Positions 89 through 40,601 of a DNA stretch of 40,601 nt are shown here, piece after piece. This stretch comes from a virus. The stretch lies in the IMG/VR virus record IMGVR_UViG_3300045988_091682; one strand, 5' to 3'. Below the pieces are notes generated by a model. That model searched no databases. It was not told the DNA's origin and saw nothing but the letters and a program-made list of their open reading frames with translations. Position 1 is the stretch's first letter; every line of letters begins with the position of its first letter. The position numbers and the translations under genes were made by a program.

Positions 89-160
89 GCCTTTGTAGTT
101 CAACGGATAGAACGGCGGTTTCCTAAACCGCAAATCCGGGTTCGATTCCCGGCGAGGGTA
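89..160 (+). tRNA. tRNA-Arg (anticodon CCT), 72 nt, no encoded CCA
   Basis: Hand-folded cloverleaf. Acceptor is gcctttg/cgagggt. D arm is gttc-aacggata-gaac with GG. Anticodon arm is gcggt-ttCCTaa-accgc. The variable loop is 4 nt. T arm is ccggg-ttcgatt-cccgg, and the discriminator is A. The acceptor stem holds 3 G-U pairs. Confidence 0.8.
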
Positions 161-163
161 CAA

Positions 164-230: not shown

Positions 231-248
231 GTTGTCATATAGTTGTCA
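231..248. promoter_or_regulatory. Two GTTGTCA repeats spaced 11 bp apart (putative integrase arm-type or autoregulatory sites)
   Basis: gttgtca occurs at 231..237 and 242..248. The same heptamer pair with the same 11-bp spacing occurs at 40466..40472 and 40477..40483, across the circular junction. Confidence 0.4.
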
Positions 249-260
249 AAAACCTGCACC

Positions 261-1643
261 ATGCCGACCACATTCAAACCTGTTGTCTACGCCGACAATA
301 AACGGCAGGACGGAACCTACAACGTAAAGATACGAGTAACCCATCGACGGCAGACATTGAAGCTGTCAACGAATATGTACGTCGCCGCACACCAAATGAC
401 GCGCGCGCTTAAACTCAAAGACCAAAGCATAATCGACGAGGCGAAACGAATCATCGACAACTGGCGCGCCATCGTCGGACGGCTCGGAGCTGCGGCCGAC
501 GTTATGACCGTCCGGCAGGTAGTCGACCACATCAAGCAGACGGAGCAGAACAACATGGCTTTCGAACTTGATTTTATCGCCTATGGACGCAAAAAGGCTG
601 AAACGATGCGCCCCGGAACGGGCATCGGGTATCAGATCGCCTTAAATGCGTTGGTGCGGTATATCGGCTCGGAAACACTTGACATCAGCCGGATAAATGC
701 CCGATTCCTTACGGGCTTCGAACGGTTCATCGAGGCCGAACCCGTTCTGACGCACAGTAGAAAGGGTGCAATCCGCCAACTGCACAAGACCAAGAAAGGC
801 GGCCGCGCCGTATCATCCTATCTTGCCTGCGTTCGCCACATCCATAATCTCGCAAAACAGGAGTTTAACGACGAGGAATTGGGCGTCATCCGCATACCGC
901 AATCACCGTTCAAAACCTACAAGGTCAAGCAACCGCCAAAGGTCAAAAAACGAGCCGTCAACCCCGATATACTCCAACAAATAATCAACCTCGGCGACGA
1001 ACCGCGCCGTGCTGGGTCAATCTCCGATTTCACGCGCCGCGATCTTGCCCGCGATTGTTTCCTCCTGTCTTTCGGCCTTGCAGGCATGAACGCAGCCGAC
1101 CTGCTATCCTGCCCTGCGCAGCCCCTCGATGGCGACGTTATCGTCTACAACCGACAAAAGACCGCGAGCCGTCGAGAAGACGAGGCGGAAATGCACATCA
1201 GAATCGAACCACAGATCGCGCCGTTGGTCGAGAAATTCAAAGACCCGACAGGCGCACGACTATTCCGGTTCCATCTACACTACCGGGATGGCAACACATT
1301 TAACGGAGCGCTGAATCAAGGTCTGAAACGAATTGACGATGCGTTGCGGGCGACCCGAGACGTCGACCAACATCAGAACGACGCTGCGGGCGAAGATCGG
1401 CCCCTGCCGGAACATATCACGTTCTACGCCGCGCGCCATAGCTGGGCAACGATAGCCCGTTCAGCAGCGCTCAAAATCGACAAATACACCGTACACGAGG
1501 CGCTGAACCACGTCGACGCAGATATGAAAATAACCGACCGATATATCGACCGCGATTGGTCGGTCATTTGGCAGGCAAATGCAAAAGTACTTGGCCTGCT
1601 CAACTGGTCGGAACTAAAAAAAAGAGAGGAAAACCGGAAATAA
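261..1643 (+). CDS. int: Tyrosine site-specific integrase
   Basis: ORF 243..1643; the ATG at 261 is preferred over the TTG at 243. The C-terminal catalytic region contains YAARHSWAT (HxxR box), HEALNH and TDRYI (catalytic Tyr context). The gene is adjacent to a tRNA and to the junction. Confidence 0.85.
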   Translation: MPTTFKPVVYADNKRQDGTYNVKIRVTHRRQTLKLSTNMYVAAHQMTRALKLKDQSIIDEAKRIIDNWRAIVGRLGAAADVMTVRQVVDHIKQTEQNNMAFELDFIAYGRKKAETMRPGTGIGYQIALNALVRYIGSETLDISRINARFLTGFERFIEAEPVLTHSRKGAIRQLHKTKKGGRAVSSYLACVRHIHNLAKQEFNDEELGVIRIPQSPFKTYKVKQPPKVKKRAVNPDILQQIINLGDEPRRAGSISDFTRRDLARDCFLLSFGLAGMNAADLLSCPAQPLDGDVIVYNRQKTASRREDEAEMHIRIEPQIAPLVEKFKDPTGARLFRFHLHYRDGNTFNGALNQGLKRIDDALRATRDVDQHQNDAAGEDRPLPEHITFYAARHSWATIARSAALKIDKYTVHEALNHVDADMKITDRYIDRDWSVIWQANAKVLGLLNWSELKKREENRK

Positions 1644-4334: not shown

Positions 4335-4988
4335 CTATTTTAAGGACATGCACATCAATACGCGATACATTCCGTAAATATCGGCGAATCGCACGGCAAA
4401 AGGCTGATATTTCGGGTCGGGATTCAAAGAATAGCACTGTACGGAATCGTCATCGTCCCCCTTCCGCACCTCCTTTATAACACTACCGTTACAAGTATCG
4501 AGGACATAAACCCGCCCCCATTCGATGAACGCCGTTTCGTCGACCTTTTTAATAAGAACCTGCGCCCCGTTCGGATAGTCCGGGGCCATGCTGTCACCCG
4601 TTACCGTCATAACAAAATCAACGTCACGAATCGGCGTGACAACGCGCTCACACTCGGCAATCTTAATTGACACAACAAAGTCGTTAAGTGTCCCGCCTTG
4701 CGCCGCGAGAGGCAGCAGCGGAGCAGTAAATACATTCGGCGTTTCGGCTTTGTTTGTCGCCGTCGAGGTCTTCACAGAGCCGCCGCGGGTCATAGGCCCA
4801 ACGCCCGTCATCAACCATTCTGTATTAAGGTCAGGATAACGTGATGCAATGCGTTGTAGTTTATCCGGCTGAACAGATACGCGGATTGTGTTCACATAAC
4901 CAATCGTCAGCCCTGCTTCGCGCTCAAAAGCACGCACAGAACGCTCTTTCGATTTAGCGAACTTGACAAGTCTTTCTTTTATAGTCAT
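4335..4988 (-). CDS. cI/LexA-like repressor (HTH plus S24 peptidase domain)
   Basis: 217 aa. The N-terminal HTH has TEWLMTGVG. The C-terminal part has the VTGDSMAPDYPNG Ser-nucleophile motif and a downstream LIKK lysine. The gene is divergent from the early operon. Confidence 0.85.
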   Translation of the reverse strand: MTIKERLVKFAKSKERSVRAFEREAGLTIGYVNTIRVSVQPDKLQRIASRYPDLNTEWLMTGVGPMTRGGSVKTSTATNKAETPNVFTAPLLPLAAQGGTLNDFVVSIKIAECERVVTPIRDVDFVMTVTGDSMAPDYPNGAQVLIKKVDETAFIEWGRVYVLDTCNGSVIKEVRKGDDDDSVQCYSLNPDPKYQPFAVRFADIYGMYRVLMCMSLK

Positions 4989-5159
4989 ATATAAAAAAAT
5001 TTCACAAAACTTTCACAAAATGCTTTATAAAGTTTGCATAATATGATGCTTTGCTTTATATTTGCATCATAATTCACAGGGATTACGCATGAATTACGCA
5101 CAAATATAACAAAAATTGTTTAATGCAATACATTATTATCACATAAAGCACAACGCACG
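4989..5159. promoter_or_regulatory. Immunity/switch region with divergent promoters and phased repeats
   Basis: AT-rich 171-bp gap between divergent genes. The rightward promoter has -33 TTTG (5033..5036) and -7 TATATTTG (5057..5064). The leftward candidate is CAAATATA at 5101..5108. Repeats are tttcacaaaa x2 (5000, 5011), attacgca x2 (5082, 5093), and TGCTTTATA(aag)TTTGCAT-like boxes at 5021..5039 and 5052..5067 (the second copy lacks the aag). Confidence 0.6.
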
Positions 5160-5456
5160 ATGAACACGAAATTTTTTAACCGAGCCGTAGGTCATGCAAA
5201 CATCCTCGTCGGGGATAACATCGACCAACTCGTCAGCGAGGCCATGAACCACGTTGCCCGCCTCCGGGATTACTACCGGAACGACATCCGTCAATCGTTG
5301 CAGGATTTAGGCGCAGCCTGCGTATCGAATCATTCCACAGGAGACAAGAGGAGTTTGTTTGTTGTTCTCGACAAAGAGCATCAAGTATCGGACGAGGATT
5401 GGCAAAACATGGCCATACGTGACATCGAAAGGAAATACAACATCCGAATCCTATGA
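5160..5456 (+). CDS. Hypothetical early protein
   Basis: 98-aa ORF. It is the first gene of the rightward operon. Confidence 0.55.
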   Translation: MNTKFFNRAVGHANILVGDNIDQLVSEAMNHVARLRDYYRNDIRQSLQDLGAACVSNHSTGDKRSLFVVLDKEHQVSDEDWQNMAIRDIERKYNIRIL

Positions 5457-5752
5457 AAACGGCGACCAATCTCAACAGCGCGACGGGCAGCGTGCTCGGA
5501 CTTGCCGAACTTATCGGAATAAGCCACGGTAAAATGCGCACTCTTATCGGCCACCTATGCGCCGCAGGACTGATAACGAGTGAATCATCGAACAAAGGAA
5601 CGGCATTTCGACTTACTGACCGCGGCGAACAGGTATTGAATTTCACATCGGCAGACGTCGACGATTTTTCGACCATTCTGTCGGTTATCCAACGGCCTTT
5701 CGGCATAGCTATTTTACATATTATTAAACAACTAACGCACAACGCACTATGA
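5453..5752 (+). CDS. Putative winged-helix DNA-binding protein
   Basis: 99 aa. LGLAELIGISHGKMRTLIGHLCAAGLITSE...FRLTDRGEQVL resembles a MarR-type wHTH. Start and stop overlap the neighbouring genes. Confidence 0.5.
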   Translation: MKTATNLNSATGSVLGLAELIGISHGKMRTLIGHLCAAGLITSESSNKGTAFRLTDRGEQVLNFTSADVDDFSTILSVIQRPFGIAILHIIKQLTHNAL

Positions 5753-6207
5753 AAAATAACATCGAAAATGGGATTTACATCCCCGAGGAACAGCGCAACC
5801 TTATCCCCGTCGACGAATGGGTGAAGCGCGAAGATCCGACCACAGCGCAGACCGTTGTACTTGTAACCGATTTCGGAATGCTCGAAATCGCCAAAGAAGA
5901 CCTACCGGGCGGATTCAATTTCGAGGGCGCACAGAAAGCTGCCGCCGAATACCGCAAGGGCTTCCGCTGCCCGACCCGGCATGAAGCAATTGAAATGTAC
6001 GACGCCCGGTTCCGTGGCCTCGACGAAGCGTTCAAGAAGATCGGCGGCGAACCCGCAACGACTATCGGCTGGACGAGCGAAGCCGACCCCGGCCCGGAGT
6101 ACAATTCCACCGGCGCGTTCGTCTACGACGGCCTCACGGGCGGCGTGAACATCTACAACAAGGGTAACGCGTTCGCCGTGCGTCCGGTTTCCGCTTTCAA
6201 GAAATAG
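5749..6207 (+). CDS. DGR variable protein 2: small leaderless DUF1566/C-type-lectin-fold-like protein with a C-terminal VR
   Basis: 152 aa. FRCPTRHEAIEMY corresponds to the W(R/W)LP(T/S)xxE motif of target 1. The C-terminus EYNSTGAFVYDGLTGGVNIYNKGNAFAVRPVSAFKK is encoded by a TR-matching VR. Confidence 0.8.
   Translation: MKNNIENGIYIPEEQRNLIPVDEWVKREDPTTAQTVVLVTDFGMLEIAKEDLPGGFNFEGAQKAAAEYRKGFRCPTRHEAIEMYDARFRGLDEAFKKIGGEPATTIGWTSEADPGPEYNSTGAFVYDGLTGGVNIYNKGNAFAVRPVSAFKK
6097..6193 (+). repeat. DGR variable repeat VR2
   Basis: 97 nt align without gaps to TR 37057..37153. There are 16 substitutions: 15 at TR adenines and one T-to-G (tat to ggt). Confidence 0.8.
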
Positions 6208-6225
6208 TTTCACAGTTCAATCATT

Positions 6226-6249
6226 CCCGCGCCCTTTACGGGGCGCGGG
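6226..6249 (+). promoter_or_regulatory. GC hairpin downstream of VR2
   Basis: 9-bp stem cccgcgccc / gggcgcggg with loop tttacg. It is preceded by attcccgcgcc, the same flank as downstream of VR1. Confidence 0.6.
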
Positions 6250-12457: not shown

Positions 12458-12472
12458 AAACAACAACGCACG

Positions 12473-12823
12473 ATGAAAAACAAAAACGACAAGCGGGGCA
12501 AGTCCCCGGCAAATTTCTACGACAGAATCGCCGAAATGCTCAACAAGGCGGCTATTCCGCAGACGATCACAGTCGAGGCCGAGGGAGTTTCGCCCGAAAC
12601 ATTCTTGGCGACAGGGATCACGAAACGCGAACTGTATGCCACCGTCGCAATGGCAAGCCTTGCGCACGCCGTCGTAACCACCCCACCCACCGGAGGCGGC
12701 AGGCTTCGTTCAGACTGGGCGCGGCGCGTGGCTACACAAGCCGCAGAGCTGGCCTACTACCTCGACGAAGCACTCGGCGAGATCGAACGAAACGGCGAAC
12801 CCGCAAAAGATTCAAGACGATGA
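12473..12823 (+). CDS. Hypothetical protein
   Basis: 116-aa ORF. Confidence 0.55.
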   Translation: MKNKNDKRGKSPANFYDRIAEMLNKAAIPQTITVEAEGVSPETFLATGITKRELYATVAMASLAHAVVTTPPTGGGRLRSDWARRVATQAAELAYYLDEALGEIERNGEPAKDSRR

Positions 12824-16685: not shown

Positions 16686-16723
16686 AAAGCGTGTATTATT
16701 TACACGCTTTTTACATATCTTTG
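16686..16723 (+). terminator. Hairpin terminator plus -7 box cassette, copy A
   Basis: Stem aaagcgtgta / tacacgcttt, loop ttatt, then a T-run, then TATCTTTG (16716..16723). Copy B at 28614..28651 has an identical stem. Confidence 0.6.
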
Positions 16724-16760
16724 TGCTGGTAACCAATACAGAGTAAACGCAACCGGGCCT

Positions 16761-17693
16761 ATGAAAATTCCGCAAACTATCGAAATGCAGGTTGGCGCGC
16801 TCAATGCCAGCGAGCACAACCCGCGACAAATCACCGAAGACGATTTCGCCGAACTGGTCAAATCCCTGCTACTGCTGCCGAAAGGCTTGTATTACCGCCC
16901 CGTCGTCGTGGACGACCGGAATATCGCCCTTGCCGGAAATATGCGCCTGCGGGCGCTGAAATACATTCACGAACTCGGATTCGACGACCTCGCAGAAATC
17001 TTGCGGGCGTCGTATCGGTTCCGGCATTTCGACGAGGCGAAACAATCCGCGCTGCTGAACTACTGGCGCGAATGGCAGATGCACCCGACCGTGCCGACGC
17101 TTTACGCCTCGGAACTCGACGAAGACGAGCAACAGCAGTTCATCATCAAAGACAACCTATCGTTCGGCACGTTCGATATTGACATGTTGGCAAACGAGTA
17201 CGACATCGCGGCGATCATCGACGATGGTTTCGACATCGACCTGCTCCCAAAATCGGCCATCGAGGCGTTGGCCGCGGCAAATGGTATCGACCCTAACGAT
17301 ATAACAGGGCGACGCTGTGGCGGCGACGGGGAAGCCGACGAGCACTACACGCACAAAATCACGTCGCCCGTCTACGAGCCGAAGAACGAAAAACCGGACT
17401 TATCGACGCTGACCGACAGCGGCCGAACCGACGAACTGCTGGCAAAGATCGAAGCGTCGAACGTATCGCCCGACGAAAAAGAGTTTCTGCGGCAGGCTGC
17501 CGCACGACATACGGTGTTCGATTACGCCAAGATCGCCGACTACTACGCACACGCCTCGAAAGAAATGCAGGAGCTTATGGAAGATTCGGCGCTGGTCATT
17601 ATCGACTTCGGCAAAGCCATCGAAAAGGGCTACATCCGATTGTCGGACGAAATACGAAACGAATACACACGGGAGTATGGCAATGAGGCATAA
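16761..17693 (+). CDS. ParB N-terminal (ParB/Srx-like) domain protein
   Basis: 310 aa. NASEHNPRQI and ALAGNMRLRAL correspond to the ParB-box motifs. Confidence 0.6.
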   Translation: MKIPQTIEMQVGALNASEHNPRQITEDDFAELVKSLLLLPKGLYYRPVVVDDRNIALAGNMRLRALKYIHELGFDDLAEILRASYRFRHFDEAKQSALLNYWREWQMHPTVPTLYASELDEDEQQQFIIKDNLSFGTFDIDMLANEYDIAAIIDDGFDIDLLPKSAIEALAAANGIDPNDITGRRCGGDGEADEHYTHKITSPVYEPKNEKPDLSTLTDSGRTDELLAKIEASNVSPDEKEFLRQAAARHTVFDYAKIADYYAHASKEMQELMEDSALVIIDFGKAIEKGYIRLSDEIRNEYTREYGNEA

Positions 17694-28613: not shown

Positions 28614-28651
28614 AAAGCGTGTATTTATTACACGCTTTTTATTTAGCTTTG
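28614..28651 (+). terminator. Hairpin terminator plus -7 box cassette, copy B
   Basis: Stem aaagcgtgta / tacacgcttt, loop tttat, T-run, then TAGCTTTG (28644..28651). Confidence 0.6.
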
Positions 28652-28669
28652 TTTCGTAAAATCAAATCT

Positions 28670-34104: not shown

Positions 34105-35166
34105 ATGTATGACATCAAATTAGGGCAGGGATGCGGCATCAAAGCCACGATGTTGACCCCGGCAGGCGGCGTCTGCGATCTGCGCCGAGCACGGTATATC
34201 GCAGCGTCGCTCGTACTGGTATCCGGCGCAACGATGAATTGCGAAGACGTCACGTTCAATGAGGTGACGAACGCTGTTTATGTGCGCCTGCTCGGAACCC
34301 GCGAACTGACCGCCACCGGGCGCTATGGCATCATCTTCAACGTCAAACTGGAAGACAAGACGATGTATTCGACGCCCGTTGTGTGGTTCGCGGAAGTCAA
34401 AGAGAACGCCCCGACAGGCTATCACGAACTGACGCTATCGCTGTCGCTCACCGTCGTAAATTTCCCGGACAATGTCTCCTATACGGGAGCGTCGCCAAAG
34501 ATCGGCGACAAAAATACGTGGCTGGTCTACGACGACAATCTCAACGCGTATGTCGATACGGGTATCGAGGTCGGATATGCGAACCTGTTGTCACGCTACG
34601 ACGGTAAGTTTGCCGAAATCGTCGTCCCGTGTACCGAGGCAACCAACGCGGCCGCAGCGGCCACGGTCGCCGCAAACAACGCGGCCGCAGCAGCCAATAG
34701 CGCAGCAGGAAGTGCATCGACGGAGACAACAGCAGCGAATACAGCCGCAGGCAAGGCCAACGCCGCAACGACGGCCGCAAATAACGCAGCAACAGCGGCC
34801 AACACAGCCACGGGTAAGGCAAACGAGGCGGCGACAGCAGCAAATAATGCAGCGGAATCCGCACAGCGCGTCGTCGACACCTACGACGACGTTATCAATA
34901 CGCTCGCGCACTCCGACTGCACCCTCGACGAGCGGGTCGAGGCACTCGAAAAGGCGCTTATAGCCGTCTTGTCGGGTGCTGTCGTGATTCCCAAATTGCA
35001 GATCAAGGAATTGAACGTATGGGGCAATAACAGCCTTGCCCCCGTCGGCGACGGCGCACCGACGAAAGCCCCGGACAGAGCCGGGCAGTTCTACATCGAC
35101 AAGACCGCCCGCGCGCTCTATTTCTCAACGGGTAACGCGGCCGTGTCAGACTGGAAAATTCAATAA
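34105..35166 (+). CDS. Fibre-like protein with Ala/Asn/Thr-rich repeats
   Basis: 353 aa. The central region has imperfect 22-aa repeats, with the unit AANTA(A/T)GKAN(A/E)A(A/T)TAANNAA occurring twice. Confidence 0.6.
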   Translation: MYDIKLGQGCGIKATMLTPAGGVCDLRRARYIAASLVLVSGATMNCEDVTFNEVTNAVYVRLLGTRELTATGRYGIIFNVKLEDKTMYSTPVVWFAEVKENAPTGYHELTLSLSLTVVNFPDNVSYTGASPKIGDKNTWLVYDDNLNAYVDTGIEVGYANLLSRYDGKFAEIVVPCTEATNAAAAATVAANNAAAAANSAAGSASTETTAANTAAGKANAATTAANNAATAANTATGKANEAATAANNAAESAQRVVDTYDDVINTLAHSDCTLDERVEALEKALIAVLSGAVVIPKLQIKELNVWGNNSLAPVGDGAPTKAPDRAGQFYIDKTARALYFSTGNAAVSDWKIQ

Positions 35167-35178
35167 TGCAAACGGAAT

Positions 35179-36525
35179 ATGGCACAGGTTAACAAATACG
35201 CAGATCGGGCCGCTTATACGGCCGACGCGAAACGTCTTTCAACGAAATCGGCCGTTTCGTTCATCGAAAATGAAACGACAACGATTTACGACGGTGTGAA
35301 TACCGTCGTCGGAAAATCGGCTGCCGCCATCGGGGATCTCGCCGTTTTCGATAAAACGGACGGGGTTATCAAATACATCAAAAGCGCAACGATTGCCAAG
35401 GCGCAGATTCCAGCAAACCTTGTACCGCTGGCCGTCGTCTATGCGCGACAAGGTGAACAGCTATTGATCGTATCGCTCGACCATGTTTCGGGCAGCATCC
35501 GCTGGGCACATACCTACGAGGTTGCATTGTCGGGTTTCGATCTCGCTGCGGGCGGCACAATCGTGTTGAAGCTCGGTTCCGACCCTGCCGCCGCAGAGGT
35601 GTCGATAGCGTATACCGCAGGCGCAACGCTCGCGGATGTTGCATCGGCTATCAACGCGAAACTCAAAGGTGGGACACCCAATTACTCCTCGACGGATTAT
35701 GGCGGATGGGCGGCGACTGCGGCGGACAATTTCGTCGTGATGGGTTCGAACACGTATAACGCCTCCCGTGCGGCGATTGCCGTTGTTGGCGGTTGTCAGA
35801 TCGCAAGGACACCGGAAGACATTAACTACCAAACAACGTTGACGGGGGTGTTGATCGAGGGGTCAACCGAATATGTCCGCCGCAACAACGGCGTTAATTC
35901 GTCGTTTGCGGGCTGTAATCCCGAAAAATTCCTGCAATACTATTCGGCCAACGGAACCGATACCACAGGAATCAAACCCGGAAGTAGCACCATAATTCGG
36001 GAAAGCGCTTTTACGGAAGAGGCCAACCCGGAACTGGTCGCCGCCTATCCAACCTACCGGGATTATCTGTTCGGAGAACATTTGCTGCAATATCCCGCAG
36101 CCTACGGCGCGCTGCTTCGTGATGGCAAGGCCAACACGCACCTGATCGGCGGTCTGCGGTTCGTCGACATCCACGGCGAAAGCGTTCCCCGTTATCCGGC
36201 CGCTGCGGCCGCTCTCGACTACGGCGTCACGGTCGAGGGCGCAACTACCGGACTGGAAGCGGGCGCATGGTGGCTGCCGTCCGTCGATGAAGTCTACCTG
36301 CTCATGCACGACCGCGTGCTAACGTCCGCCGACCGGGAAAGCGACCCTGTAAACCGCACGCTGTCGCGCCTCGGTAAGACGACCTGCTACGGATCGGGTT
36401 ATTATCCGTGGACATCGTGCGAGTACAATTCCATCAACGCGTTCTTCTACAACGGCAACGCGGGCAACGTGAACAACAACAACAAGTATAGCACGCTCGC
36501 CGTGCGTCCGGTTTCCGCTTTGTAA
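35179..36525 (+). CDS. DGR variable protein 1: putative receptor-binding/tail-fibre protein with a DUF1566/C-type-lectin-fold-like C-terminus
   Basis: 448 aa. The motif GAWWLPSVDEVYLLM is present. The C-terminus EYNSINAFFYNGNAGNVNNNNKYSTLAVRPVSAL is encoded by VR1. Confidence 0.85.
   Translation: MAQVNKYADRAAYTADAKRLSTKSAVSFIENETTTIYDGVNTVVGKSAAAIGDLAVFDKTDGVIKYIKSATIAKAQIPANLVPLAVVYARQGEQLLIVSLDHVSGSIRWAHTYEVALSGFDLAAGGTIVLKLGSDPAAAEVSIAYTAGATLADVASAINAKLKGGTPNYSSTDYGGWAATAADNFVVMGSNTYNASRAAIAVVGGCQIARTPEDINYQTTLTGVLIEGSTEYVRRNNGVNSSFAGCNPEKFLQYYSANGTDTTGIKPGSSTIIRESAFTEEANPELVAAYPTYRDYLFGEHLLQYPAAYGALLRDGKANTHLIGGLRFVDIHGESVPRYPAAAAALDYGVTVEGATTGLEAGAWWLPSVDEVYLLMHDRVLTSADRESDPVNRTLSRLGKTTCYGSGYYPWTSCEYNSINAFFYNGNAGNVNNNNKYSTLAVRPVSAL
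36419..36517 (+). repeat. DGR variable repeat VR1
   Basis: 99 nt align without gaps to TR 37055..37153. There are 6 substitutions, all at TR adenines. Confidence 0.9.
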
Positions 36526-36547: not shown

Positions 36548-36580
36548 CCCGCGCCGCATCGCGTCGGCGTGCGGTGCGGG
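36548..36580 (+). promoter_or_regulatory. GC hairpin downstream of VR1
   Basis: 10-bp stem cccgcgccgc / gcggtgcggg (one G-T pair) with a 13-nt loop. It is preceded by attcccgcgcc. Confidence 0.6.
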
Positions 36581-36596: not shown

Positions 36597-36991
36597 ATGG
36601 CAAAGAAATTATCTATCCTCGACAAAACGTTCCAACTGGCGTTGCTCCTGCATCGCCGGACGGCGGAATTCAATCGCAAATACAAATTCACTATCGGCGA
36701 CCGCATCGACGTTGTGGCAGAGGAAGCGCAGGAAATGATACTGCGGGCGAATCATCAAACCGACCCGAAACGGGCCGCAAAATCATCTACGATTTCGTCC
36801 TGCGTATTGACACCCTGTCGCTAAAACTGCGGATGGCCGTTGCGCTGGGTCTGATGAGTGACGACGCAAAAGCACAATGCGATATGCTTATCGCAAAGAT
36901 TAAAGACGAGGCGAGGGGTTGGCGAAACTATTTTCTGCGTGGCGAGGGTGTCGTCGGCAAGAGCAACGGGCCGTCGGCAGAGAGCCTATAA
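36597..36991 (+). pseudogene. avd: Avd (DGR accessory variability determinant, four-helix-bundle family) with a frameshift
   Basis: The N-terminal half is MAKKLSILDKTFQLALLLHRR...ILRANHQTDPKR. The C-terminal half, read by hand in the other frame, is IIYDFVLRIDTLSLKLRMAVALGLMSDDAKAQCDMLIAKIKDEARGWRNYFLR.... The frames meet near the A4 run at 36779..36782. Length is 395 nt, one nt short of a multiple of 3. Confidence 0.7.
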
Positions 36992-37041: not shown

Positions 37042-38439
37042 ATGCAAAAAACTGGCGAGTACAATTCCAACAACGCGTTCATCTACAACGGCAACACGGG
37101 CAACGTGAACAACAACAACAAGTATAACACGAACGCCGTGCGTCCGGTTTCCGAATTTCAAGGTAATGTAGACCCTTTCGCCTCGTTCTATAAATCAATG
37201 CGGGCGGCATATCGCCTATGCTTAAAAAACAAAGTGCATACCGCTAACGCGATACGCTTTTGGCTTGATGAAGAAAGCGAGCTTGTCGCGCTCGCCCGCG
37301 AGGTGTTCAACTGCGAATATGTCCCGCGGCAATCCATCGCATTTATCGTTACGAAACCATGCCTGCGCGAAGTGGTAGCCGCCGATTTCCGCGACCGAAT
37401 CGTGCAGCACTATATCGTCATGCGCCTCGAAGCTCTTTTCGAGGAATGCGGAACACTCGACGATAACATGTTCAGTTGCCGCGTCGGGAAAGGCAACCTT
37501 GCGGCCATACAGGCCCTACAACAGCAGATATTCCACCAGTCGAAAGGTTATACCGCCGACTGTTATGTGGCAAAATTCGACCTGCAATCATTCTTTATGA
37601 GCATCGACAAACGCCGTCTTTACGACGAGTTGGTCGCATTGGTCGCCAAACGCTACGAGGGATGGGATAAGGATACGCTGTTGTATCTTATCCGCGTCGT
37701 TACGCTGCATAATCCGCAGGACAACGCCGTGCGGAAAACTCCACTTTGCGATTGGGCTGACCTGCCGCGCTCGAAGAGCCTCTACAATGTCGATTGGTTC
37801 CTCGGTTTAGCCATCGGGAACCTCACGTCGCAATCCGACGCGAATTTCTACAACGCACCCGCGATGCGGTGGATGCGCTCCGTTGGCCTCGCTCCTGTGA
37901 ACTACGTCGATGATTTCGCATTCGTCGTCCGGGATAAGGCATCGTTTCTTACGGCCATGCCTTATATTCGAAACTATTTCGCCGCAGAACGGGGACTGAC
38001 GATGCACCCGCGGAAATTCTACCTGCAACACTACTCGAAAGGCATCAAGTTTTTAGGTGCGGTTATCAAATACAACCGCGTCTACACGAACAACCAAACC
38101 GTCGCACGGTGTTTCGGAAAGATTCACTACTACAACGAAGCGTGCCGACACAGTAGCCGCCGCAAGGCCCGGCATGTCGAGAAGCTGGCGACAATCCTAA
38201 ACTCCTATTTGGGGTTGATGCGGCATTTCGATACGTTCAACATTCGTAAACGCATCGCCGCAGAGGTCGGAACCGTATGGTGCGACTATATCCGTTTCGA
38301 CGACGACATCACGACGGCAACGGTCGTCAAACATTTCCGGCAACGGGAAATCTGCAAATACAACGTCCGCAAACAACGCAGACGCGATTTATTCACACTC
38401 AAAAACTTACTCAACGATGGAAACACAGCAGCAAATTAA
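37042..38439 (+). CDS. DGR reverse transcriptase (start uncertain: ATG 37042 or ATG 37198)
   Basis: The catalytic motif is NYVDDFAFVV (YxDD). The DGR-RT signature is LAIGNLTSQSDANFYN (xGNxxSQ). The conserved N-terminal region FASFYKSMRAAYRLCLKNK begins upstream of the ATG at 37198. Confidence 0.9.
   Translation: MQKTGEYNSNNAFIYNGNTGNVNNNNKYNTNAVRPVSEFQGNVDPFASFYKSMRAAYRLCLKNKVHTANAIRFWLDEESELVALAREVFNCEYVPRQSIAFIVTKPCLREVVAADFRDRIVQHYIVMRLEALFEECGTLDDNMFSCRVGKGNLAAIQALQQQIFHQSKGYTADCYVAKFDLQSFFMSIDKRRLYDELVALVAKRYEGWDKDTLLYLIRVVTLHNPQDNAVRKTPLCDWADLPRSKSLYNVDWFLGLAIGNLTSQSDANFYNAPAMRWMRSVGLAPVNYVDDFAFVVRDKASFLTAMPYIRNYFAAERGLTMHPRKFYLQHYSKGIKFLGAVIKYNRVYTNNQTVARCFGKIHYYNEACRHSSRRKARHVEKLATILNSYLGLMRHFDTFNIRKRIAAEVGTVWCDYIRFDDDITTATVVKHFRQREICKYNVRKQRRRDLFTLKNLLNDGNTAAN
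37055..37153 (+). repeat. DGR template repeat (TR)
   Basis: 99 nt with 33 adenines and 11 AAC codons in the VR reading frame. It is the donor-like copy, because the positions where VR1 and VR2 differ are A in TR. Confidence 0.9.
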
Positions 38440-40546: not shown

Positions 40547-40601
40547 GTTTCCTAAACATTGGGGCAGAGCGGAACACGACATTCGGGCGGAACTATATAC
40601 A
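40547..40601. repeat. 55-bp terminal direct repeat, right copy
   Basis: Identical to 1..55. Confidence 0.95.

Follow-up and report, generated by a model that had tools for sequence, protein, structure and literature searches.

Results

A Retroelement with Two Variable Repeats in a Circularly Assembled Phage Genome

The window analyzed here is the whole of IMG/VR record IMGVR_UViG_3300045988_091682 (40,601 nucleotides), a circular assembly of 40,546 bp in which positions 1-55 are identical to 40547-40601. Judged from its gene content, it is the genome of a temperate siphovirus-like phage. It carries a diversity-generating retroelement (DGR) in which the gene of a 448-aa target protein with a variable repeat (VR1), the accessory gene avd, a template repeat (TR), and a reverse transcriptase (RT) gene follow each other in the canonical order (Table 1). 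The RT is of the DGR clade: in addition to the RVT_1 match, its translation contains YVDD and IGNLTSQ, a motif of the IGxxxSQ type, and the protein is 42-44% identical to the annotated RTs of the Bacteroides uniformis DGR phages F1, F2, and F4. Far from this cassette, in the early region, lies the gene of a 152-aa protein, here called T152. An annotation made earlier from the letters of the window (hereafter, the original prediction) took the 3' end of this gene for a second, remote variable repeat of the same element (VR2).

The 19-mer GCCGTGCGTCCGGTTTCCG is present in exactly three copies in the window, at 6175 (VR2), 36499 (VR1), and 37135 (TR), with zero copies expected by chance. When the TR pattern with N at every adenine was used, the same three copies were found and no fourth in the window. 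An ungapped comparison of TR and VR2 (84% identity over 97 nt) revealed 16 substitutions, 15 of them at TR adenines; given 33 adenines in the 97-nt TR, the probability of at least 15 out of 16 is 1.0e-6. The sole non-adenine change is T37123>G. VR1 differs from TR at six positions, and all six are adenines. VR2 is in frame with the T152 open reading frame (ORF). Our comparison reproduced the codon-for-codon match of the original prediction, its exact list of codon changes (AAC to ACC, GGC, GAC, CTC, GGC, ATC, TAC, and TTC; ATC to GTC; ACG to GCG; and TAT to GGT, which contains the non-adenine change), and its invariant 3' block, which is the 19-mer. Since the assembly is circular, the predicted distances of ~31 kb to TR and ~7.9 kb to the RT are also correct: VR2 and TR are ~30.9 kb apart in window order and ~9.5 kb apart across the circular junction, and the same junction separates the end of the RT gene from the start of the T152 ORF by ~7.9 kb.

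The same or nearly the same TR was found in 21 related contigs (23 matches, one of which is a VR2 and one a VR1 keeping these adenines). Just upstream of the VR/TR homology boundary, T152 codon 115 (6091-6093) differs by an A>G change, being Gly (GGC) in the window and Asp (GAC) in 96 of 98 homologues. Many contigs terminate at a VR or the TR. In two contigs (L001 and L106) the VR2 end of T152 runs straight into TR-downstream sequence and the RT; these are probably assembly chimeras across the VR/TR repeat. In another (L006), VR2, VR1, and TR lie within ~2 kb, and VR2 keeps its own downstream sequence.

VR2 Varies at Adenine Positions in Related Phages

We compared the versions of VR2 and VR1 recovered from related Alistipes phage contigs in IMG/VR (32 and 17 distinct sequences, respectively). 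The fraction changed per TR adenine was 0.40 for VR2 and 0.38 for VR1; at non-adenine bases it was 0.027 and 0.010. The variability of VR2 in relatives is thus adenine specific, as the original prediction requires, and is as strong as that of VR1. For the 98 homologues that are exactly 152 aa long, the entropy per column was near zero over most of the protein and reached 2-3 bits only at codons 119, 121, 122, 125, 127, 129, 132, 134-137, 140, and 142, which are the TR adenine codons. The residue spectrum at these codons (N/S/Y/G/I/F/D/H) is the one that randomization of AAC yields.

Near-identical genomes gave the same picture. In three contigs (L004, L011, and L012), the flanking genes are 100% identical to those of the window at the nucleotide level and the non-VR part of T152 is 99.1-99.4% identical, and their VR2s are entirely different at adenine positions. 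The exact orf98, orf99, orf104, and RecT sequences of the window were each found on at least 1000 contigs, the exact T152 on three, and the exact VR1 target on two. In 90% clusters, T152 variants number 9044 and 3222, compared with 411-487 for neighbor genes. Several independent lines of comparative evidence indicate that VR2 is a live target in this phage lineage, and both the differing VR2s of near-identical genomes and the high variant counts indirectly support ongoing retrohoming at VR2.

No sign of positive selection outside the VR was seen when ratios of nonsynonymous to synonymous substitution rates (dN/dS) were considered for the seven closest relatives and for L015. In the former, the non-VR part of T152 shows 0.6-0.9% nucleotide divergence and 1-2 amino acid changes, too little for a selection test. 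L015, the one more divergent relative compared, has a dN/dS of ~0.24 for this part, like neighboring genes.

Homing Signals Are Present at Both Variable Repeats

Targets of DGRs are recognized by a GC-rich initiation of mutagenic homing (IMH) sequence that differs from the corresponding sequence of the TR (IMH*) and by a downstream hairpin. Both VRs of the window have these signals at the sequence level. Beyond the 97 nt the three repeat copies are unalignable, except that the 19-mer is followed by a CTTT-type end in VR1 and VR2 and by AATT in TR. DNA folding placed GC hairpins 30 nt after VR1 and 32 nt after VR2 and none at TR; the hairpin at VR2 is a candidate target-recognition hairpin or cruciform. 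Distant members of the T152 family, too, have a VR-like 3' end and then a GC hairpin.

VR copies with degenerate homing ends, in turn, are invariant across contigs. Nine independent viral contigs, in which no TR was found, encode a 453-aa VR1-type protein whose homing end has decayed (GCCGTGCGTACGGTCAGTG) and whose VR is common to all nine: seven copies are identical (L129-L131, L135, L138, L140, and L143) and two (L139 and L141) are two bases off. L129 combines the common VR with its own variant of the decayed end, and L137 has a different VR. Likewise, a 157-aa T152 lineage whose homing end has decayed shows one and the same VR in three independent sources, namely two viral contigs and one Rikenellaceae isolate genome. 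From their sequences, the VRs of the 453-aa lineage are fossils left after DGR loss, and they provide a natural negative control.

T152 Is a Stand-Alone Lectin-Fold Domain without a Hydrophobic Leader

With the family alignment as input, AlphaFold2 modeled T152 as a single domain with a predicted local distance difference test (pLDDT) score of 96.2 and a predicted template modeling (pTM) score of 0.90. The top PDB match in a Foldseek search was 8Q4E, the C-terminal domain of Legionella Lcl (E 7e-6, template modeling [TM] scores 0.54/0.62), with 23% identity over 115 columns and alignment of the W/F-R-x-P-T-R-x-E motif; the next matches were snake-venom and animal C-type lectins (CLec). A profile of the T152 family matches 8Q4E at E 1.3e-6. 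In BFVD, T152 can be superposed over its full length on the C-terminal domains of large phage proteins, one of them an annotated tail fiber (TM scores normalized to the query, 0.67-0.83), and also on DUF1566 proteins. In the model, VR residues 117-149 span strands 122-127, 133-137, and 147-149, the last three of the fold, so that the VR lies on the C-terminal strands of a CLec fold. The structure prediction thus gave the CLec-like fold anticipated for the 152-aa protein, with the Lcl C-terminal domain as its nearest match.

T152 itself has no significant family in Pfam, PHROGs, NCBIfam, or PADLOC, and weak sub-threshold Lcl_C/DUF1566 matches were found in 26 of 40 family members (best E 2.6e-6). 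The model and the matches to 8Q4E support a relationship of T152 to Lcl_C/DUF1566 at the level of fold and superfamily. At that level the original description of a "bare DUF1566/CLec-like domain" holds; as formal Pfam membership (13.8 against 34.9 bits) it does not. The VR1 target, too, is matched by the family profile, over residues 361-448 and with 96% probability.

An exhaustive search collected 132 clusters of the T152 family at 50% identity; most members stand alone and are 145-175 aa long. They have in common the motif FRCPTRxE..IYDARFxGLDxAL..IGG...WTCExDxDP and then a variable tail ending in VRPV. The hosts of T152-bearing phages are Alistipes and Rikenellaceae. INPHARED searches with the region DNA, T152, and two distant homologues gave no match, so there is no functional annotation from cultured phages.

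Neither hydropathy analysis nor the model revealed a signal peptide, lipobox, hydrophobic leader, or transmembrane segment in T152. The first 30 residues include 11 charged ones (mean hydropathy -1.1), the maximum 19-residue hydropathy is 0.93, the first Cys does not occur before residue 74, and in the model one of the strands of the domain is made up of residues 8-12. These values bear out the earlier statement that signal peptide and transmembrane segments are lacking. The same hydrophilic pattern is seen in 40 aligned family members, including those with N-terminal helical extensions of 60-80 aa. We infer that T152 is located in the cytoplasm.

T152 Belongs to the Early Region in Five Phage Backgrounds

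orf98, orf99, and T152 are joined by overlapping stop/start codons, and no TAnnTTTG box, of the Bacteroidetes type, is present between the box at 5057 and T152, which makes it reasonable to suppose that T152 is co-transcribed with the early rightward operon. A scan for sigma-70 promoters and terminators was uninformative, since its counts were near the shuffled expectation and Bacteroidetes promoters differ. The rightward early block has the order orf98, orf99, T152, three small ORFs, an SbcC-like ATPase, RecT, a metallo-hydrolase, and a DnaD-like initiator. Beyond it follow, in order, the terminase (19190), a tape-measure-like protein, the head protease, the portal, the tail-fiber-like gene, and the VR1 target; the endolysin gene comes after avd, TR, and the RT gene.

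Table 1. Features of the Window Discussed in the Text
Feature	Position	Strand	Remarks
tRNA-Arg(CCT), complete	89..161		just upstream of integrase
Integrase	243..1643
cI-like repressor	4335..4988	-	PHROG 4 transcriptional repressor, E 5.5e-21; also CI-like repressor family
AT-rich divergent control region between repressor and early operon	4989..5159		TAnnTTTG boxes 5057-5064 (+) and 5101-5108 (-), motif matches
orf98 and orf99, two operon genes upstream of T152	5160..5752	+	weak winged-helix/helix-turn-helix matches
T152, 152-aa variable protein, second DGR target	5749..6207	+	stand-alone C-type-lectin fold, DUF1566/Lcl_C-like
VR2	6097..6193	+	codons 117-149 of T152; 16 differences from TR
VR2 homing end, IMH-like	6175..6198	+	invariant 19-mer, then CTTT
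GC-rich hairpin after VR2	6226..6249	+	10-bp stem, 4-nt loop; DNA fold z = -2.5
Tail-fiber-like gene	34105..35166		precedes VR1 target
VR1 target, 448 aa, end of tail module	35179..36525	+	DUF1566-like C-terminal domain; weak Lcl_C match
VR1	36421..36517	+	6 differences from TR, all at adenines
GC-rich hairpin, 30 nt after VR1	36548..36580	+	DNA fold z = -3.7
avd accessory gene	36597..36991	+	PHROG 3206 "Avd protein of DGR", E 1.9e-13; 1-nt deletion near 36780
TR	37057..37153	+	33 adenines in 97 nt
DGR reverse transcriptase	37198..38439	+	RVT_1, E 2.6e-10; IGNLTSQ and YVDD in translation

Five phage backgrounds were examined. In the type represented by the window, the genes are cI, orf98, orf99, T152, SbcC, RecT, hydrolase, and DnaD. 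In a different Alistipes prophage, a T152 homologue lies among ERF, SSB, NinG, and YopX. A 42%-identical relative adjoins SSB, a 46%-identical relative is found just before RecT, and a 211-aa relative is located between regulatory genes and a primase. By gene order in all five backgrounds, the early, replication, or recombination position of the T152 family is not accidental. The earlier statement that T152 is not a tail gene is confirmed by its place beside the cI-like repressor and extends to the early regions of the other backgrounds; no structural-module location was found in any of the five, and the 152 residues, which make up one domain, contain no recognizable virion-anchoring domain. 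orf99 was rejected as a conserved partner of T152, as the upstream genes differ between backgrounds.

The T152 gene is dispensable, for it has been deleted to a 20-codon remnant in five viral contigs (L044-L048, e.g., L047 10001-10087), in which the first 20 T152 codons are followed by unrelated sequence and form part of an ORF of 28-39 codons. T152 is also absent from DGR-less contigs with a fossil VR1. A 39-kb viral contig, IMGVR_UViG_3300045988_118231 (L026 and L043), has two T152 copies, one of them frameshifted, and one cultured Rikenellaceae genome (L107/L108) contains two T152-bearing prophage regions 55 kb apart.

Several further elements were noticed in the window. In the gap between the repressor and the early operon (5020-5075), ATGCTTT and TTTGCAT(A/C)ATA are repeated around TATATTTG boxes and are candidate operators of the immunity switch. 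The conserved motif AACGCACAACGCAC[G/T]ATGAA spans the start codons of orf98 (5145-5171), T152 (5734-5760), and the ORF at 12473 (12458-12484), and may provide the three with a common context for translation initiation or regulation. A palindromic hairpin, AAAGCGTGTA-TTATT-TACACGCTTT, occurs in two copies (16686-16724 and 28614-28652; 87% identical), each followed by TA(T/G)CTTTG; preceding the genes at 16761 and 28601, the copies may be terminator-plus-promoter units that mark module boundaries. The tRNA-Arg(CCT) gene may be one that the phage carries, or it may be connected with the attachment site.

Discussion

We consider that the single DGR of this phage truly has a second, non-adjacent target in T152 and that T152 is an early-made cytoplasmic accessory binder, with a probability of roughly 0.8. 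By analogy with DGRs of the BPP-1 type, TR RNA would be copied by the RT together with Avd into cDNA randomized at adenines, and this mutagenized cDNA would replace either VR1 in the tail-module protein or VR2 in T152. Both VRs would be recognized through their common homing end (the 19-mer and the CTTT-type end) and the GC hairpin ~30 nt downstream. As a result, ~15 codons in the C-terminal beta-strands of a stand-alone lectin-fold domain would be randomized, and the surface of T152 would change independently of VR1. Given the lack of an export signal, T152 would most likely be produced within infected cells as a soluble binding protein whose surface varies, with an accessory rather than a virion-building role. 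A function as a decoy matched to the tail protein is unlikely, since the two VRs are randomized independently from one TR. A more specific proposal is that the T152 family (~130 clusters) represents intracellular "antibodies" of Bacteroidales phages, expressed early, randomized by DGRs, and neutralizing variable host or competitor factors such as defense systems or proteins of superinfecting phages. Such an anti-defense function, already suggested in the original prediction, would be compatible with a leaderless, dispensable protein that is encoded among early accessory genes; we regard it as speculative and rather doubtful.

The main rival, which we also hold to be unlikely, is that T152 is a virion-associated or lysis-released adhesin, a free receptor-binding "head" that would dock to tail or capsid, or work outside the cell after lysis, and whose gene just happens to lie in the early region. 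T152 would then be an ordinary receptor-binding target of a DGR, unusually located. The overlapping stop/start codons tie the gene to small regulatory-type genes, and in five unrelated backgrounds it is always found with early, replication, or recombination genes and never in a structural module; the protein has no recognizable anchoring or stalk domain, and phages can do without it, as the 20-codon remnants and the fossil-VR1 contigs attest. What speaks for an adhesin is chiefly structural: the T152 fold superposes on the C termini of large phage proteins including a tail fiber (TM 0.67-0.83), the DUF1566 core is common to T152 and the tail-module VR1 target, and the C-terminal domain of Lcl is an extracellular, trimeric adhesin head (PMC11162425). 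Virion proteins, moreover, need no signal peptide.

Could VR2 be a fossil, that is, a past homing product or a duplicated C terminus that is no longer diversified? The frameshifted avd of this genome, the existence of frozen T152 and VR1 lineages, and a T152 allele that is identical on 14 contigs in a DGR-less phage would fit such a history. We nevertheless hold it to be very improbable: neither the homing end nor the hairpin is damaged in the lineage of the window, 38 of 38 relatives encode an intact Avd, near-identical genomes differ in VR2 at adenine positions, and the per-adenine rate of VR2 equals that of VR1. Outside the VR, T152 and the VR1 target are similar only at the profile level, which argues against recent duplication. 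As for a match of VR2 to TR by chance, or plain paralogy of two lectin domains without a DGR, the two proteins are indeed of the same fold class, but 97 nt at 84% identity lie inside otherwise unalignable DNA, zero matches are expected in shuffled sequence, and the mismatches are confined to adenines (P ~1e-6), by which this explanation is refuted.

Several observations weigh against the interpretation that we favor. The Lcl_C (PF07603) score of T152, 13.8 bits (E 0.071), is below the gathering threshold of 34.9. A leaderless protein could still enter virions in the cytoplasm or be released at lysis. The promoter assignment depends on motif matches and is weak, because TAnnTTTG is not enriched genome-wide (22 found, 16.7 expected). 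In addition, the avd frame of this genome is split by a 1-nt deletion within 36775-36790 (GCA-AAATC, compared with GCACAAATC in relatives), which the original prediction had not remarked. The deletion was seen in none of the 38 relatives, all of which encode an intact 131-aa Avd. It reflects either an error in assembly or true inactivation of the gene. In the latter case, the retroelement of this individual genome does not work at present, and VR1 and VR2 of the window are frozen snapshots. Finally, T152 alleles with pristine VR2, homing end, and downstream sequence (L109/L110, also L024 and L073; L020; L022; L025; L033) occur in phage backgrounds whose contigs, up to 132 kb long, are without a TR. 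Three whole-collection scans detected no TR on these unrelated-background contigs, and a search for close relatives of the RT found RTs only in the window's own lineage. The phage of L110 has a VR1-target homologue of its own, in which the VR is decayed (28 mismatches, including 12 at non-adenines) and downstream of which no RT is present, and the allele present on 14 contigs of a DGR-less phage (P0118) is identical on all of them. Hence T152 is also maintained where diversification is not going on. The TR-less alleles may have been acquired laterally in recent times, or a DGR prophage residing in the same host may serve them in trans.

In the DGR of BPP-1 (mtd-avd-TR-brt), transfer from TR to VR is adenine specific, the VR is at the C terminus of a C-type-lectin fold, and a GC-rich homing end is followed immediately by a VR/TR difference and, downstream, by a GC hairpin. 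The window has the same gene order in its VR1 cassette, as well as the adenine-specific transfer and a C-terminal VR in a CLec fold, and the same arrangement of homing end, VR/TR difference, and hairpin is seen at the window VRs. Unlike BPP-1, the phage has a second target ~31 kb off in prophage order, outside the structural genes and consisting of a 152-aa domain only, and its lectin domain is of the DUF1566/Lcl_C rather than the Mtd type.

Remote and small targets have been described before, and in calling this one unusual the original prediction overstated the case. Wu et al. (2018) reported that many DGRs associated with phages have, besides an adjacent target, a non-adjacent one within ~50 kb, and found about half of the DUF1566-class targets to be short and domain-only ("category d", CLec2) (PMC5758913). 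T152 resembles these cases in both respects, its phage having an adjacent and a non-adjacent target in the same prophage within 50 kb and a short target of DUF1566 type only. However, that survey gave targets no functional module and did not look at export signals, and the protein that exemplifies the class in it, Legionella LdtA, is found at the surface as a lipoprotein (PMC5758913). T152, in contrast, is leaderless and encoded in an early operon in several backgrounds. In the largest metagenomic survey (Roux et al., 2021), remote targets were undetectable, and viral targets were mostly tail proteins (PMC8144416). A large survey of Bacteroides grouped prophage DGR targets as pilin-like, TaqVP-like, and large multidomain proteins.

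Phage genomes with two VRs are also documented (PMC10743442, PMC11792537). Like the window, the tentaclins and Hoc-like targets (PMC10743442) and the Faecalibacterium phages Lelie, Lagaffe, and CP11 (PMC11792537) have one TR and two VRs, both of which vary in populations. Tentaclins are proteins of 313-649 aa with Ig-like anchoring domains, encoded in the cassette and presumed to be displayed on virions (PMC10743442); none of this applies to T152. Legionella pneumophila Lcl (8Q4E), the best structural and sequence match of T152, likewise has N-terminal strands preceding the DUF1566 core, but it is secreted, has a trimeric collagen-like stalk, binds glycosaminoglycans, and is not diversified by a DGR (PMC11162425), while T152 has neither stalk nor leader and scores below the Pfam threshold. 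Cellular DGR targets, namely cyanobacterial signaling proteins (PMC7517822) and STAND-type putative antigen sensors (PMC10907252), offer a precedent for intracellular lectin-fold variable domains. Those targets are large, multidomain, and cell-encoded, in contrast to T152, a phage-encoded single-domain early protein. We found no description of a leaderless early-operon family of DGR targets in the searchable literature, and a conserved family of this kind seems undescribed so far. The mechanism is not new; the novelty lies in the type of protein that is targeted and in its genomic niche.

The usual reading of phage DGRs is that they serve to switch host receptors. The present case, from an Alistipes phage that is highly prevalent in the gut (genes next to T152 occur on at least 1000 contigs each), provides a clean example of one TR that diversifies a tail-module protein and, equally strongly, a small leaderless protein of the early operon, and suggests that phage DGRs diversify more than receptor-binding proteins. 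Should T152 work within the cell, phages would be using targeted hypermutation for more than adsorption; should it be a virion accessory, this would show that receptor-binding modules can be encoded and regulated with early genes. Were T152 proteins to act as intracellular "antibodies", this would be a counter-defense use of targeted hypermutation, mirroring the DGR-diversified sensors of bacteria. Alistipes lysogens exist, which makes an intracellular role of T152 directly testable.

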